Shown one piece after another: positions 52,682 through 64,000 of a stretch of 64,000 nt of DNA (positions are counted from its first letter, which is position 1; every line of letters begins with the position of its first letter). The stretch covers positions 3,328,001 through 3,392,000 of the forward strand of contig OZ220733.1 in the NCBI GenBank assembly GCA_965116875.1, given 5' to 3'. The notes beneath the pieces are model-generated. The model did not search any database and was not told the origin of the DNA. It saw nothing but the letters and a program-made list of their open reading frames with translations. The stretch is from Candidatus Latescibacterota bacterium. GTDB taxonomy: Bacteria; Latescibacterota; UBA2968; GCA-2709665. Position numbers and translations under genes: made by a program.

Positions 52682-54433
52682 TTATTCCTCCGCGCCGCAT
52701 CGCCTGAGCAAAGCACCCATGTCTGTGATCTTCGTGTCGAGTCGGGCATATTCCTTATGACCCTGCGGATTCTCGCTCCAGGCCAGGGGCGTCGCCCAGG
52801 ACGCGCCTGCCAGATTCGGATCGGCGCCCGCTTCCAGCATGAACCTGGCGAGTTCGGGCCACTCGAATCGTACCGCCATTGCGAGCGGCGTGGACTGCCT
52901 CTCTCCGCCCAGCACGTTCAACTCTGCTCCGTGGTCAATGAGCTTTCGCGCGAACACGATACGGTCTTGCTCCGTGACGTGCCAGGTGATCTCTGCGGTC
53001 CAATGCAGGGGAGTGAGGCCGCCTTTCTTCTCGGGTGCGTTGGGATCGAACCCGTGTTCCAGAAGGCGTTCGAAGCAGGCGTAGAAGTGTTCGGCGCGGG
53101 CCTTACCGGGATTGCCCGGACAGCGTAGCCGCCACATCCGCATGGCCAGGCACAGAACCTCGTGCATTTCGCTTTCCGAAAAACCCGGATTCTGCGAAAG
53201 GCAGATTGCCACGAGGTCCGGGTGCCCGCCGTGGACGGCGCCCTTCAGAACGTCCTTTGCGCACGACGGATCGGAATTGACGAGCGCCGCGTCCACGGCA
53301 ATGTTGTCGCTGTTGGCGGCGTAGAATCCCGGCGCCACCCCGTCGTCGAAGCCGGGAAATGCGCCGTGTCGCAACAGCAGCTTTTCGATCGCGTCGTTCC
53401 CGTTCGCGATCGCCCAGTTCAGTGCATTGCCGGAGGCGTCCATCACGGTATGCGCCGATGCTCCGTTCTCCAGCAGCAGCGTTGCCATCTCCAGATCATC
53501 ATTGAGCGCCGCCGCGTGCAACGGGGCCCCTCGCTCGGCCACGGGATATCCCTCATACTTATCGTATGGCGTGTCCGGGTCCGCGCCCCGTTCCAGCAGG
53601 AGGCGCACGACTTCCAGGTGTCCCTTGTCGGCGGCGATCGAAATTGGATACGCGTCCATGCCCGGATAGTTACGACCCCAGTCGTTCACGGCTTCGGGAT
53701 CGGCATCGAGGATCCTGCGCGCGCCGTCGACGTCGCCGATCGCGCAGGCCGCCCACAGGTCGTATTCCGCTCCCCGTCCCAGCAGAATGCCGCCAATGAC
53801 CGGCCACAAAGGACTCGGCGGGGGGTCCCAACCCCGTTTGGGCCGTGGGCCAAGGGCGAGGTGGATCGGCTTCTTCCCGCGGGCATTTGTTCGATTCGGA
53901 TCGGCGCCCCGATCCAGAAGCTCCTGGACGATCTCGACGTGATGATTTTCCACCGCGACGTGAAGCGCCGTGTCGCCGCCACGGTTCACAGAGTGTACTC
54001 CGGAAGGGTCCGAGTCGAGCCGTTCCGCCAGGGCGTCGATTTCGCCTCTTTCGGCGGCCCGGCATAGAGCCGCGCCAGTCTCCGTCTCTCCGGACTGTCT
54101 CAAGCGCCACGCTTCCATAGCTTCGGCCACTTCGGTATGCCCGCTGTGCCGGGCCATGTCGATTGCCGACACCCGCTCCCGGTAGGTCACCCGGGTCGGG
54201 CTGGCGCCGGCCTCCAGAAGCAGCCGCAGCACCTCCAAATGACCCTCCCGGGCCGCGTAGTGAATGGCCTGATAGCCCTGCACACCGTCTCGCCGAGCGA
54301 GTTCGGGTTTCCGCTCCAGGATGGCCCGCACCTCGTTAACGTCGCCCTCGCGTGCCGCCTTGCAGATTTCCGCGACACCGGCGGATTCGCTATCCCGGAC
54401 CGGTCCGTTCCTCCTGGACGTCTTCTTCGTCAT
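52682..54433 (-). CDS. Ankyrin-repeat protein
   Basis: Many TALH/PLH..A...G..EVVRLLLERGADP repeats; AAGGA RBS before ATG 54433. Confidence 0.92.
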   Translation of the reverse strand: MTKKTSRRNGPVRDSESAGVAEICKAAREGDVNEVRAILERKPELARRDGVQGYQAIHYAAREGHLEVLRLLLEAGASPTRVTYRERVSAIDMARHSGHTEVAEAMEAWRLRQSGETETGAALCRAAERGEIDALAERLDSDPSGVHSVNRGGDTALHVAVENHHVEIVQELLDRGADPNRTNARGKKPIHLALGPRPKRGWDPPPSPLWPVIGGILLGRGAEYDLWAACAIGDVDGARRILDADPEAVNDWGRNYPGMDAYPISIAADKGHLEVVRLLLERGADPDTPYDKYEGYPVAERGAPLHAAALNDDLEMATLLLENGASAHTVMDASGNALNWAIANGNDAIEKLLLRHGAFPGFDDGVAPGFYAANSDNIAVDAALVNSDPSCAKDVLKGAVHGGHPDLVAICLSQNPGFSESEMHEVLCLAMRMWRLRCPGNPGKARAEHFYACFERLLEHGFDPNAPEKKGGLTPLHWTAEITWHVTEQDRIVFARKLIDHGAELNVLGGERQSTPLAMAVRFEWPELARFMLEAGADPNLAGASWATPLAWSENPQGHKEYARLDTKITDMGALLRRCGAEE

Positions 54434-54458
54434 CGCGAACAGTTCCTTCTTTGGCCTT

Positions 54459-54566: not shown

Positions 54567-54596
54567 AGTTCCTCTCCCCGTGGCCCCTCAGATTCG

Positions 54597-54704
54597 GGTA
54601 GAAGGGAGACGGTAGAGGGGAGAGATTTCCTGCCTTATGGAGTTTCTTTTCCTGCCGGAGGCAAGAAGGAACAGAGTACCGGGCAAGGGTTTCTTCTACC
54701 GTCT
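54597..54704. repeat. Heptamer-armed hairpin repeat serving as IS1111 target (continues at 56285-56302)
   Basis: GGTAGAR/GGGAGAV heptamers and a CCTGCC-GGA-GGCAAG core; homologous to 63188-63300. Confidence 0.75.
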
Positions 54705-54734
54705 ACTATGTTAAAAGTCAAGAGAAAACGACCA

Positions 54735-55120
54735 TATGTTGGCCTCAGATGCTGGGGTTACTCTACCATTATGCGTACCTATGCGACGCGTTCATTCCGA
54801 CACGCTCGACGAGCGTGTCGGAATGAACGAAATAAACGTCATTGAGGCCTGAATGGTTCCCTGCCGCACGACAGCAGTAGGGACCAGGCGTACGGTGTTC
54901 GCTGTTGGATGGCCTCAGATGCTGGGGCAACGCTACCAATCTACTATTCGTAGTCGCCTGGTGCAGGCGCTGACATGTCATTTATCCGGAGCCGTGCGAT
55001 AGGGGACGGGGCGTGCAAACTTCACTTACGTAGTACCCTGTGGGTCTACAAGACGGTAGGCGCCGTCCCCTGTACTCCGCGATCAAAAGCGGTGCGTGCG
55101 CAGGCATCTGTTGCGACCGT
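54735..55120 (-). ncRNA. Bridge/seek RNA region of the IS1111 element
   Basis: Internal loops whose strands match target CTACCGT-CT-TCCCT and donor ATAGTGA-CT-ACTAT; duplicated 3' hairpin. Confidence 0.8.
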
Positions 55121-55124
55121 GTGT

Positions 55125-56195
55125 TCACCCGGCGATGAGGCCCAGCTGATAGGGCTCTCCATTCAGCAGGATCCTGCGCATACGGCCCACCAGGATTCTG
55201 GCAACACCGACGATGGCGCGTTTGCCACCGGCACGCACCTTCAAGTGTTCGTATTTTTCCTGCATCGCGGGATCTTTCTCGATCAGGCGCCAGGCCGCCT
55301 GGGTAAGTAACGCACGTACAATGGGCTTTCCCTGGCGGGTGATGCGCCCGTGCCTCACGTGCTCGCCCGACGAGTGCTGGCCGGGCGTCAGCCCCACGTA
55401 GGCCGCCAGCGCATCTGCGTTCTTGAAGCGCGCCACATCCTGCAGTTCCAGGAGGATCTCCATGGCAGACAAGCATCCCACGCCCGGGATCGACGTCAGG
55501 ATCGCCACCCGATCCCGATACGTGTCTGTTTGCGCAAGCTCCCACAGCATTTTCGTCTGGCGCCCCACCAGTTCACACAGATCATCGTATTGTTCCAGCA
55601 TGTTCTCGAAGCTTTCCTGCGCACACGGCTCCCCCAGGTCCACACCACGCAGTGCGGTCACGAACTTGTCAGACCACGTCCCTCTGGATTCTTCGTGCAC
55701 ATACAAACCCATATACCGCAGTTCGGCCTTGATCCGTAGTTGTACACGCACCCGATCCTTGATGAACTGCCGGCGGCGACGACTCACTTGGCGGTGGCAC
55801 CGCTCTTCATGCGTCGGCACATAGATCGATGCCAGCAGGTCCGTCCTCAGATAATCCGCCAGCTTGAAGCTGTCGATGGAATCCGTCTTGACCCGATTCC
55901 CACTCTGGCTCGGGATCAGGCTCGGCGGCGTCACCGAAGCAGACACACCCATATCGACAAGAAAATCATATAACCAGAAACCGAAATAACCGGCTTCATA
56001 CACCGCAAAGATCTCTTTCGCTTCGCCATAACGACTCAACACCTTATCGATCGCCTCTGCTGTGCCTGCGATGCGATTGGAGAACAGTCGCAACCCATCC
56101 TCGTTGAGAATCGTCACGTGCCACTGCTTGAGATGCATGTCGATGCCCACGAAAAGATCCTTGCCATCCCACGCTTCAACGGTATACCTTGCCAT
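55125..56195 (-). CDS. IS110-family DEDD recombinase/transposase
   Basis: GIDMH, YEAG, KTDSIDS, IPGVG, YVGLTP.QHSSG; AGGAGG RBS. Confidence 0.96.
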   Translation of the reverse strand: MARYTVEAWDGKDLFVGIDMHLKQWHVTILNEDGLRLFSNRIAGTAEAIDKVLSRYGEAKEIFAVYEAGYFGFWLYDFLVDMGVSASVTPPSLIPSQSGNRVKTDSIDSFKLADYLRTDLLASIYVPTHEERCHRQVSRRRRQFIKDRVRVQLRIKAELRYMGLYVHEESRGTWSDKFVTALRGVDLGEPCAQESFENMLEQYDDLCELVGRQTKMLWELAQTDTYRDRVAILTSIPGVGCLSAMEILLELQDVARFKNADALAAYVGLTPGQHSSGEHVRHGRITRQGKPIVRALLTQAAWRLIEKDPAMQEKYEHLKVRAGGKRAIVGVARILVGRMRRILLNGEPYQLGLIAG

Positions 56196-56296
56196 CACGA
56201 GCCTCCTTGTGAAAGTGTTTGTTACGGGCAAAGGCAAAGTATACTCTCACAAGCTGAGGCTCAACTCATTTTAACATAGTGACTTCCCTCTACCCT

Positions 56297-58696
56297 CTAC
56301 CCGCATTCAGGCCTTTTGTGGCCAATTTGACTGTAGTCTTTTTTCTGATTGAGGTTGTGCGGTGATCGGTTATCTGTGAGATCCGCGGTCTCCACCAGTT
56401 TCCACGTGTTTCCGCGATCCGGTGACATCATCAGCGAACGGCGGCTTTCCGGGTGGTCGTTCCTGTAGAACCAGTAGGTGGAGAAGTAGTCGTACGAGAG
56501 GAACAGCCGCCCGATGCGGTCTATAGTGAGCCGGTGGTAGAACACGCTGTATTCGGAGAACGGCGGCACGACGAGGACCCGGGGTTCCTGCCAGGCCCCT
56601 TCCGCGGGGCGATGCTGATGGGCCAGCGTCGCGTAGTTGCCGGCCGGGAAGTAGCTGGTGCCGTTCCACCAGAGTCTGAAGGCCGAATGCAGCGTGTCCT
56701 CCGGGTCGCAAACGAAGCCGATGTAGGTCTGCCGGGCGTCCGGCCATGCATCGCGGGGTTCCGTCCAGCCGGCGTCAGCCGTGTTCGAGCCCAGCGATCG
56801 TGCATACGGGAAGGGACATCCATGGGTTCCGGACAGCGCGTGCAGATAACCCCGGCTGTCCATGGTGATGCTGGGAGAATTGTGGATGTCGTTCGCGGGC
56901 GGACCGTAACCGACCAGTGCGGGCGCGCCCATCTGCCGCGTCTCCCTGTCGACGGTGGCGACGTACGTGGGCACGCCGGGGACGTCCTCGCCGGGGTCGG
57001 TCGCTTCGGCCCAGATGACGTTTACTCTGCCTTCTCTCGAGACAACCGAAGCGGGGATCCCGGAATGCTGGGAAAGGCCGATGCACCGATCGGAGACGAG
57101 TATCGGTTCGCCCAACGAAAGGCCGCGGGACGTCTTCTCGGGCAGGAAGAGCTCCAGGTCATTGACTTTTCGCCAGAACAGGCGCGCATCTTCCTCGGTG
57201 CGGGCGTAGCGGAGAACCGGAGGCGGTCCGTCACAGGAATTATGGCCGGTAAACCATTCGATATCGAAAGTACGCGGACAATCCTCTCTGCCGGGAATCG
57301 CGCATGCGGAGAAGGTGCGACCCTGGTCCGAGGAGTACAGCAGGTTGGGTTGACCGTTGACATTGGCTACAATATATAGTAGATTCTCCGAGTCGAAGGC
57401 AATCTTGGTGGATGCAGTTCCATCAGCGGCGTTGTCAATGCCGCGTACGGAACTTCCGAAGTCGGACTCGGTCCAGCGGCCGTCGCGCAAGGCGCTGATC
57501 CCTTTTTCGGTCCGTACGAATGGACGGTTTTCGAGATCGAAATAGATCTGGTTCTCTACGGGAAGATCGGGCACGAAACCGAACTGTGCGTTTTCATGTT
57601 CGTAGGGCTTCAATACCAGGGGCAGTCTGATGGGCCGCCGGACGGGTGAGGTTCCCGCCCTCAGCGTCAGCGTTGAATAGGTGGATATTTCCGGGTAGGT
57701 ATCGGACGTGGCCCTCAGCCGGCACGTAAGGACGTCATCTTCACCTGCCGAATCCGGCATGGCGTAACGGGCGGTGACGCGAGTGCGTTCCATTGGGCCC
57801 AGATCGACGGTGTCCGTGGAGAGCCGGACGGGGAGGGTGGATGCCCCGTCTGTTTCAGGCGTCAGCCGCACGGTTTGCGCCCTTTTGGAACTGTTTCTGA
57901 CGACGAAGTCGATCGCGCCGGACGCTCCGGCGCGGACGTACAGGTTTCGGTTGTAGGGTGTGAGCAGCCAGCGGCAGGCGTGGAGGGGGAAGAAGGATTC
58001 CGGGTTCGGGCTCCAGTACGACATGTTTACGTGGGGGTCGTCGTCGGACCAGCGCGTGACGCCGTCGACGTGGATAACGGCTTGCTGGACGGGCAGGTGG
58101 AGGCGCCAGGGCGTGGAACGGCGATCGTCTGCCGGAAACGTATGCGTGACGCGCCCGTTCCGGACCGCAAGGGTATCCACGGGGTTTCCGGCAGCATCGA
58201 ACACGGTCAGCGCTTCTACAGAATCGGGCAGGTCTTCGATTTCGACGTCGAACGTGCTCCGGGGTGGAAGAAAGCAAACGTTGCCGGGATGCTCCGGCGC
58301 GAGCAGGACGATGGGTTCCTGGTGCCTGGCGTCCTTGTGACCGCGGGACGTCTCGATGAGGTAATGCCTGCAGTTGGTCCGAAACGCCCAGACGATCTCC
58401 TCGCCGTACCGGTCATTAGATATCGTGATGTTGAGTTTGTAGATGCCTTTGTGGTTGACATGCGTCGACAACCGTGTATGTTGAACAGGGCCGTTGCCAT
58501 CGCCGGGACCGGAATCGGGAATCGTCACCTCCTGAATGACCCTTCGGTCCGGCGTAATCAGAAGCGCGCGCAGGTCCGTGCGGCGATTGTGGACGTTCCG
58601 GTCTCGTTTCTGCAGGTCAATGACAAGTTCACCGGGCTCGGCAAGAAAATACGCACCTCCCGCGCCGCCGATACCCCATCGAATCGTCGAATCCAT
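56297..58696 (-). CDS. BNR-4/Asp-box beta-propeller protein
   Basis: SSDQGRTF and SPDRGNTW Asp boxes; DIHNSPSITMDSRGYLH..SGTH. Confidence 0.75.
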   Translation of the reverse strand: MDSTIRWGIGGAGGAYFLAEPGELVIDLQKRDRNVHNRRTDLRALLITPDRRVIQEVTIPDSGPGDGNGPVQHTRLSTHVNHKGIYKLNITISNDRYGEEIVWAFRTNCRHYLIETSRGHKDARHQEPIVLLAPEHPGNVCFLPPRSTFDVEIEDLPDSVEALTVFDAAGNPVDTLAVRNGRVTHTFPADDRRSTPWRLHLPVQQAVIHVDGVTRWSDDDPHVNMSYWSPNPESFFPLHACRWLLTPYNRNLYVRAGASGAIDFVVRNSSKRAQTVRLTPETDGASTLPVRLSTDTVDLGPMERTRVTARYAMPDSAGEDDVLTCRLRATSDTYPEISTYSTLTLRAGTSPVRRPIRLPLVLKPYEHENAQFGFVPDLPVENQIYFDLENRPFVRTEKGISALRDGRWTESDFGSSVRGIDNAADGTASTKIAFDSENLLYIVANVNGQPNLLYSSDQGRTFSACAIPGREDCPRTFDIEWFTGHNSCDGPPPVLRYARTEEDARLFWRKVNDLELFLPEKTSRGLSLGEPILVSDRCIGLSQHSGIPASVVSREGRVNVIWAEATDPGEDVPGVPTYVATVDRETRQMGAPALVGYGPPANDIHNSPSITMDSRGYLHALSGTHGCPFPYARSLGSNTADAGWTEPRDAWPDARQTYIGFVCDPEDTLHSAFRLWWNGTSYFPAGNYATLAHQHRPAEGAWQEPRVLVVPPFSEYSVFYHRLTIDRIGRLFLSYDYFSTYWFYRNDHPESRRSLMMSPDRGNTWKLVETADLTDNRSPHNLNQKKDYSQIGHKRPECG

Positions 58697-59050
58697 AGGT
58701 CTTCGCCTCTTGTTGGTGGTTGATCCCTCGCAGCTGGTACAAGTATAAGGTTGAGGGTCGTCAATTGAAACGAAAATAAGTCCGGGGCAGGGTCTGTGGA
58801 TCTGCATTTCGCAGACCGGCGCCCGGAGTGCGTTGCCCCGTCTGCTTCCGGACACAACGTTGGATTTTTGGAACGAAGAAGCGATCTGCGAAGTCGAAGA
58901 GCAATGAAGGTTTCACGCCTGGATGTTGGCTCTTCCATGGACGCTGCAGATTCACAACCCTGACGTAACCGGCCCGTAACACGAAAAATTATATTGTGCA
59001 GCTGATGTTTTTTGTCGCGGTTTGGTATATCTACCGTGAGGGGGGACAAG

Positions 59051-63187: not shown

Positions 63188-63300
63188 GGGCGGGTAGACG
63201 TGAGACGGAAGACGTGAGAGATTGCCTGCCTTGTCAGGTTTCTTCTCCTGCCGGAGGCAAGAAGGAATAGAGTATCGGGCAAGGGCTTCTTCTACCGTCT
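63188..63300. repeat. Second copy of the IS1111 target repeat
   Basis: Homologous, not identical, to 54597-54704; ends in the same TTCTTCTACCGTCT. Confidence 0.8.
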
Positions 63301-64000
63301 ACTATGTTAAAAGTCAAGAGAAAACGACCATATGTTGGCCTCAGATGCTGGGGTTACTCTACCATTATGCGTACCTATGCGACGCGTTCATTCCGACACG
63401 CTCGACGAGCGTGTCGGAATGAACGAAATAAACGTCATTGAGGCCTGAATGGTTCCCTGCCGCACGACAGCAGTAGGGACCAGGCGTACGGTGTTCGCTG
63501 TTGGATGGCCTCAGATGCTGGGGCAACGCTACCAATCTACTATTCGTAGTCGCCTGGTGCAGGCGCTGACATGTCATTTATCCGGAGCCGTGCGATAGGG
63601 GACGGGGCGTGCAAACTTCACTTACGTAGTACCCTGTGGGTCTACAAGACGGTAGGCGCCGTCCCCTGTACTCCGCGATCAAAAGCGGTGCGTGCGCAGG
63701 CATCTGTTGCGACCGTGTGTTCACCCGGCGATGAGGCCCAGCTGATAGGGCTCTCCATTCAGCAGGATCCTGCGCATACGGCCCACCAGGATTCTGGCAA
63801 CACCGACGATGGCGCGTTTGCCACCGGCACGCACCTTCAAGTGTTCGTATTTTTTCTGCATCGCGGGATCTTTCTCGATCAGGCGCCAGGCCGCCTGGGT
63901 AAGTAACGCACGTACAATGGGCTTTCCCTGGCGGGTGATGCGCCCGTGCCTCACGTGCTCGCCCGACGAGTGCTGGCCGGGCGTCAGCCCCACGTAGGCC
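63301..64000 (-). mobile_element. Second IS1111 copy (truncated by window edge), including ncRNA region and transposase 3' end at 63721
   Basis: Near-identical to 54705-55404; one visible change (MQEKY versus MQKKY). Confidence 0.95.

Follow-up and report, generated by a model that had tools for sequence, protein, structure and literature searches.

The window analysed here, a stretch of 64,000 nucleotides from the genome of a Candidatus Latescibacterota bacterium, carries on its minus strand an IS110-family insertion sequence of 1,580 bp (54703-56282). This length includes one copy of the AG dinucleotide core (54704-54703), and the second copy (56284-56283) is counted as left flank. The boundaries were fixed by aligning six genomic copies of the element together with their flanks. 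A BLAST search of the genome with the element returned these six copies, at identities of 100, 99.5, 99.8, 99.0, 95.1 and 88.9%, and the ends are identical in all of them. Read in the sense of the transposase gene, the left junction is ...AGGGA-AG / TCACTATG... and the right junction is ...CATAGT-AG / ACGGTAG..., the latter motif belonging to the right flank; longer reads of the two are ...GGGA-AG / TCACTATGTTAAAA... and ...TTTTAACATAGT-AG / ACGGTAGA..., respectively. Direct reading also revealed a perfect 12-bp subterminal inverted repeat, each arm of which lies 2 nt from its end: ACTATGTTAAAA on the left (56269-56280) and TTTTAACATAGT, followed by the AG core, on the right (54705-54716). The element is located between the genes for a BNR_4-domain protein (56297-58855, minus strand) and an ankyrin-repeat protein (52682-54435, minus strand). 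A second copy, B (99.5% identical), occupies 63291-64000 and runs off the window end; it has a match to the RNA model described below at 63523-63681 on the minus strand, and its right flank is again ACGGTAGA.

The AG dinucleotide is shared by both junctions in all six copies, and the left flank joined to the right flank reproduces sites that stand unoccupied elsewhere in the genome, namely four exact 14-mers of a first type and eight exact 13-mers of a second type. Thus, insertion duplicates no target sequence apart from the shared dinucleotide. The target lies within a multi-copy repeat of GGNAGAN-like heptads. In the window this repeat is seen at 54590-54702 and 56283-56310, and dozens of copies are scattered genome-wide; it has an inverted partner about 75 nt away (54595-54620), and the stop codon of the BNR_4-domain gene falls inside it, some 13 nt away from where the element inserted. 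Around 1.774-1.793 Mb of the genome there is a cluster of a second repeat family (...CGAGCGAGAAG / ACGGGAGATTCTTCGC...), and copies C and E, about 740 bp apart, lie in this cluster. On the plus strand the six insertion sites read CT[A/C]CCGTCTTC[C/T]... A first-pass annotation of this DNA had reconstructed the empty target as CTACCGT-CT-TCCCT and the donor as ATAGTGA-CT-ACTAT, both of which are the plus-strand reading of the junctions. It had also predicted a single consensus for the genomic insertion flanks; the flanks of the six copies are indeed related, but position 3 varies and position 12 is C or T rather than A or C. Two contigs from DNA runs skip the element, joining 54701 to 56289 in one case (X1) and 54704 to 56279 in the other (X4). 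Since the sides of these joints are only 20-25 nt long and the flanks are multi-copy repeats, we did not use them as evidence of excision.

The transposase gene occupies 55125-56195 of the minus strand (ATG at 56195, stop codon at 55125, 356 aa), and its ATG is preceded by AAGGAGG; the longest open reading frame begins with a TTG at 56237 and encodes 370 aa. The protein contains two Pfam domains, an N-terminal RuvC-like DEDD_Tnp_IS110 (PF01548, 4e-19) and a C-terminal Transposase_20 (PF02371, 5.5e-27), and it scores 216 bits against the NCBIfam model NF033542 'IS110 family RNA-guided transposase', for which the cutoff is 140. Residues D33, E81, D119, D122 and S290 (370-aa numbering), which we take to be the catalytic residues of a DEDD transposase, are invariant in an alignment of five proteins. 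In IS621 their counterparts are GID, E, KTD..D and ESG; both domains could be aligned to the IS621 transposase (PDB 8wt6), with an E-value of 1.7e-11. The GL-P----SG motif is present as GLTPGQHSSG. A single-protein scan of a species-genome collection found seven loci only, at 42-53% identity, and the best identity in a plasmid collection was 39%. Metagenome contigs yielded at least 80 relatives at 50-64% identity, and relatives at 47-64% protein identity are common in environmental metagenomes.

The non-coding parts of the element differ in length, 87 nt upstream of the transposase gene versus 422 nt downstream. It is the downstream region, read on the minus strand, that contains four proposed guide segments. 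The 5′ target guide, CUACCGUCU(U) at 55050-55059, pairs with core and right flank on their top strand; CUACCGUCU itself (55059-55051) matches at nine of nine positions and, with the additional U, at ten of ten positions of the empty site. The 3′ target guide, AGUGAAG at 55020-55026, corresponds to the left flank plus core, AGGGAAG, at six of seven positions. The 5′ donor guide, AUAAAUGAC at 54977-54985, would pair with one core base and the start of the left end. Its UGAC pairs with G+TCA, but the agreement with the expected 9-mer is only 5/9; UAAAUGAC (54984-54977, minus strand) is the motif that the first-pass annotation had put forward as the left-donor guide and had itself called the weaker one. 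Finally, the 3′ donor guide, AUAGUAG at 54941-54947, is identical at all seven positions to the right end's terminal 7 nt, core included. Direct reading of the minus strand returned every motif of the first-pass annotation at the positions given there.

To see how readily such matches arise by chance, we shuffled the non-coding region 5,000 times, keeping its dinucleotide composition. A 9/9 target match was reached in seven shuffles and a 7/7 donor match in 106, and no shuffle had both. Both exact matches claimed earlier hold. Taken alone, the 3′ target guide is not significant, as 6/7 was reached in 1,238 of the 5,000 shuffles, and neither is the 5′ donor guide, for which 4,775 shuffles reached 6/9 and the observed 5/9 is weaker still, that is, at chance level.

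In the full predicted bridge RNA (54916-55110, MFE fold of this copy), the target-binding loop spans 55002-55070. It is closed by a base stem in which GGGGACGG (55070-55063) pairs with CCGUCCCC (55009-55002), and it bears a distal hairpin at 55049-55030; both the MFE and the centroid structure reproduce the stem and inner hairpin anticipated by the first-pass annotation. The second loop contains the donor-loop distal hairpin GUcAGCGCC...GGCGaCUAC (54950-54974), supported by UA-to-CG double changes in relatives. An outer stem, 55110-55091 with 54937-54916, closes the whole RNA in the MFE fold of this copy. In relatives, the upstream segment combined with the conserved UGGUU has a mean energy of -10.2 kcal/mol versus -8.15 kcal/mol for mismatched combinations (sd 3.2), which lends the outer stem modest support. 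The span originally proposed for the RNA, 54931-55071, thus holds both loops but leaves out the outer stems. A search of 54600-56400 against Rfam 15 at a permissive threshold returned two chance-level matches, with no bridge-RNA family among the hits.

The decisive evidence comes from relatives of the element. A covariance model built from seven sequences gave 83 matches among 92 sources, nearly all of them over the full model length, and all but two on the transposase strand and directly downstream of the gene. Within the genome itself the model matched exactly six times, once per copy. Across relatives the scaffold is conserved, and the variation falls in the four proposed guide segments. 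Helices 2-4 of the alignment, which form the target arm, are 94-98% paired and show many double changes. For the scaffold as a whole, 89.3% of cells are paired compared with 79.6% after shuffling, and none of 500 shuffles reached the observed values, although the alignment used for these counts was fitted to the covariance model and favours the structure of that model. Twenty scaffold pairs show changes on both sides, and pairing falls to 27-48% once helix partners are slid. For the donor part, RNAalifold proposed a different set of helices (5-7), consisting of a long-range stem and an ACCA/UGGU hairpin with the donor guide in the hairpin loop. We preferred the local donor hairpin because its UA-to-CG double changes involve both partners, whereas the long-range pairs of RNAalifold vary on one side only (C/U versus G).

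The variable segments were also compared with the DNA surrounding each relative. To keep the comparison independent of the guides, the ends of relatives were located by the patterns T[N]ACTATG and [AC]ATAGNAG. The former, T[ACGT]ACTATG, is kept at the left ends of relatives; the sequence preceding the latter, found by a pattern search downstream of the RNA, is likewise conserved, mostly as ...ACATAG. In 48 of 59 unique pairs, the 5′ target guide agrees with the right flank of its own element at seven or more of nine positions, compared with 99 of 3,394 mismatched controls; the remaining 11 relatives (L003, L072 and L029 among them) fall below 7/9. For the 3′ target guide, at least four of the five variable positions agree in 28 of 37 unique pairs, compared with 30 of 1,312 controls. 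In most relatives the 5′ target guide lies within an 11-nt loop strand. The part that pairs with the core takes the last two positions of this strand in 39 of the 48 good matches and is placed one position further in for the other nine, including the element studied here and L004; in these two, an additional U on the 3′ side can form a further pair, with the base preceding the core.

A rival reading of the RNA concerns the role of the donor loop. If the RNA were only target-seeking, along the lines of the short seekRNA model, its donor loop would not read the ends. These would be recognised by way of the protein, the inverted repeats and the flanking target halves, and the identity between AUAGUAG and the right end would be a by-product of the shared ancestry of two nearby segments. 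Such an arrangement is in keeping with the account of Siddiquee et al. (PMC11187229), according to which RNAs of 82-96 nt with target matches alone co-purify with the transposase and circle formation needs flanking target bases. It would also accommodate the chance-level score (5/9) of the 5′ donor guide in this copy, and since this lineage has, near 54769-54785, a further and degenerate version of the region with the 3′ donor guide, this segment can duplicate. However, the donor guides of relatives do follow the ends. At its variable position the 3′ donor guide has the same base as the right end in 67 of 68 rows, with three different bases represented (C in 28, G in 22 and T in 17), and the corresponding base of the 5′ donor guide is complementary to left-end position 2 in 67 of 69 rows, although the rows in both counts include close kin and are not independent. 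Broken down by DNA base and RNA base, the left-end relation is A-U in 59 of 59 cases, C-G in six of eight, and T-A and G-C in one of one each. Since this relation is one of complementarity, sequence duplication does not explain it; changes in the complementary sense are what pairing predicts, which argues against a purely target-seeking RNA and leaves that alternative quite improbable. We conclude that the region is very probably the bridge RNA (seekRNA) of an IS110-family insertion sequence with an IS1111-type layout. The motifs seen in the first-pass annotation are confirmed, and its reading as a bridge RNA with target and donor loops around a dinucleotide core is supported by the covariation of guides with flanks and ends in relatives, by compensatory changes in the scaffold and by a natural double change of guide and target within this genome.

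The six copies within the genome provide a further, natural example of a joint change in guide and target. Copies A, B and D have the guide CUACCGUCU and sit in sites of the form ...GGGAAG / ACGGTAG, whereas copies E and F have the guide CUCCCGUCU and sit in ...AGAAG / ACGGGAG. The A-to-C change at 55057 in the guide of E and F matches the T-to-G change in the flank, so that pairing is kept by a change on both sides. Two guide variants, one guide change apart, are thus present in one genome, and each fits a different repeat family. The exception is copy C, which is 99.8% identical to A and has an A-type guide in a G-type flank, with one mismatch. We consider it possible, if rather unlikely, that copy C was inserted under the bridge RNA of a sibling copy acting in trans. 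This idea stems from the 'wrong' guide of copy C, a recent copy, at its site, the presence of copy E with the right guide about 740 bp away, and the identical ends of the copies. If true, it would be evidence from nature that copies share their bridge RNAs and that single guide mutations bring about retargeting.

Is the element active? It is conceivable that it is a silent relic, correctly built but with guides that are mere fossils and with copies kept by vertical descent or by recombination between copies. The linear form of the element has no promoter-like site, the 3′ target guides of E and F fit their own left flanks poorly (one and two of five variable positions, respectively), and copy C is imperfectly matched to its own guide, all of which would suit such a relic. 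So would the RNA data: of 24 public runs listed, the one RNA run with part of the element has metatranscriptome contigs that cover 55759-56289 and flanks but not the bridge RNA, although contigs cannot show the absence of a transcript. On the other hand, the transposase frame is open in all six copies, and copies A-D, 99.0-100% identical, occupy different places in the genome, indicating recent movement. Only three of 60 genomes related to the host have any match, and only one of these (G058) is full-length, with the best identity being 58%, which points to gain rather than deep inheritance. Moreover, both guide variants recur in two other public DNA runs, including the E-type differences at 55057 and 55022-55023. 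The element as such was found in about 20 public runs from 15 studies, mostly labelled as sponge or coral-reef metagenomes. A relic therefore seems very improbable, even more so than an RNA that reads the target only. Activity is plausible, judging from six open-frame copies, at least 99% identity among four of them, and unoccupied cognate sites. That the element would also be reprogrammable is what we infer from the family to which it belongs.

A promoter scan of the linear element found no promoter-like site. At the circle junction, TTGACT (54717-54722, minus strand), the -35-like half of a predicted split promoter, would be placed 17 nt, as counted, from TATGTT in the left end (56278-56273). 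Both halves recur in relatives: 39 of 59 unique right-end tails have TTGAC[T/A/C] with this same spacing to the right end, and each of the 23 unique left ends has TATG[T/A/C]T. This split promoter fits a circular intermediate of the kind known from the family, which would activate the transposase gene.

Another feature sets this lineage apart. Between the bridge RNA and the right end lies an accessory tail of about 180 nt (54750-54925, minus strand), with imperfect direct repeats at its borders. The repeats (...GGUAG.G...CCCCAGCAUCUGAGGCC) occur twice, include the degenerate second copy of the 3′ donor-guide region mentioned above (near 54769-54785), and enclose a near-perfect hairpin of about 18 bp at roughly 54789-54829. 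All six copies have the tail, which is absent from the rest of the genome, and neither BLAST nor the RNA-model search found solo copies of the RNA or the tail in this genome. In most relatives only 28-52 nt separate the RNA from the right end. Four relatives (L021, L078, L091 and L096) carry unrelated inserts at the position of the tail; in L021 and L096 the insert folds as a long palindromic hairpin. We also noticed inner complementarity between the two sides of these elements. The left-end interior and the region proximal to the right end share an exact inverted match of at least 7 nt in 28 of 53 elements, compared with 3 of 57 shuffled ones, at positions that vary between elements. In the window copy this match is GCCTCAG (56260-56254) with CTGAGGC at 54918-54912 and 54748-54742. 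In L100 and L099, positions ~26-37 of the left end hold a 12-nt exact complement of the donor loop 3′ strand (CCACGAAUAGGA), which might allow the 5′ leader of the transposase transcript to pair with the bridge RNA.

What was directly observed, namely an element in six copies, guide matches that covary with flanks and ends in relatives, an RNA scaffold that is conserved and a split promoter that is conserved as well, can be assembled into a mechanism. Transcription of the 422 non-coding nucleotides downstream of the gene would give an RNA that folds into two loops. The 5′ strand of the donor loop (..AUGAC) would pair with the left end, at its start and on the top strand, and the 3′ strand (AUAGUAG) with the right end, at its tip and on the bottom strand, two ends that would be adjacent only in the excised circle. 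The RNA-bound DEDD/serine recombinase would exchange strands at the shared AG (CT on the plus strand), and the circle would enter a GGGA-AG-ACGGTAG site in the multi-copy heptad-repeat element without duplication. Formation of the circle would at the same time assemble the TTGACT-17-TATGTT promoter driving the transposase gene. RNA expression, recombinase binding, the circular intermediate and strand exchange at the core are all taken here from the published biochemistry of the family, and would hold for this element by analogy.

RNA-guided recombination by IS110/IS1111 elements was described in 2024, and bridge RNAs were predicted in that work for most catalogued family members. The published lists of predictions may already include the clade studied here, and the picture of how IS110/IS1111 elements work is unchanged by our results. 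What they add is a clearly bounded natural bridge-RNA system with a mirrored, IS1111-type layout, in which the guide code can be read directly: target guides of 10 nt and 7 nt, a donor guide of 7 nt, and one that is shorter. The alignment of about 80 relatives separates the scaffold from the programmable positions of the RNA. In addition, two natural guide variants with fitting targets in one genome amount to a ready-made retargeting experiment.

How does this system relate to those already known? Membership in the IS110 family is evident from the presence of both protein domains, the D/E/D/D residues with the serine, and insertion without duplication beyond the core. The features of a bridge RNA are likewise present: a target loop, a donor loop (albeit of uncertain closing structure) and compensatory changes. 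Judged by its layout, that is, the RNA downstream, the subterminal inverted repeats and the guide order, the element is of the IS1111 type. In seekRNAs of the IS1111 family, the match complementary to the top strand is placed 5′ of the bottom-strand one, an order that is reversed in a member of the IS110 family, according to the description by Siddiquee et al. (2024, PMC11187229). The same order is seen here, where CUACCGUCU (5′) complements the top strand AG+ACGGTAG and AGUGAAG (3′) complements the bottom strand. The subterminal repeat of 12 bp falls within the range of 7-17 bp given for the IS1111 group, and of the two non-coding regions it is the longer one that is found downstream of the gene. 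As far as that account of the group (ISEc11, ISPa11, ISKpn4; PMC11187229) goes, the features in common are the long downstream non-coding region, the subterminal inverted repeats, the guide order, insertion into a specific repeat without duplication, the circle-junction promoter (predicted in our case) and the GL-P----SG motif. The transposases of the group, for which 330-350 aa is quoted, are somewhat smaller than the one studied here (356-370 aa). The present lineage also differs by its extra tail, about 180 nt long, which separates the RNA from the right end, and proteins of the plasmid collection are at most 39% identical to its transposase.

A partial parallel is offered by ISPpu9 of Pseudomonas putida, an IS110-family element that, as described in PMC12288879, is likewise present in several copies in repetitive extragenic sequences and has an extra module downstream of the transposase gene. 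The circles of ISPpu9 are described there as having no hybrid promoter, whereas in our element and its relatives the split promoter is conserved.

The comparison with IS621 (Durrant et al. 2024, PMC11208160; PDB 8wt6) is the most instructive. The two-loop model with core pairing comes from that work (PMC11208160), and the two loops, as well as the combination of a longer 5′ guide with a shorter 3′ guide, recur here: our 5′ target guide has 9-10 nt and the 3′ guide 7 nt. In both systems the two guides include the core dinucleotide. The DEDD domain and the serine-bearing C-terminal domain are also shared, although the protein match is distant (E = 1.7e-11). The likeness to IS621 suggested by the first-pass annotation thus stands as far as geometry is concerned, and also for the CT core, provided that the element is viewed on the plus strand. 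In the sense of the transposase gene, by contrast, the system is mirrored. The core is AG, the 5′ and 3′ guides have exchanged the strands that they read relative to the gene, and the RNA is located downstream of it, whereas in IS621, in the account of PMC11208160, it is the left end, upstream of the gene, that encodes the RNA. Finally, the donor guides here follow the closing helix of the target arm, and the donor loop is perhaps no simple internal loop.
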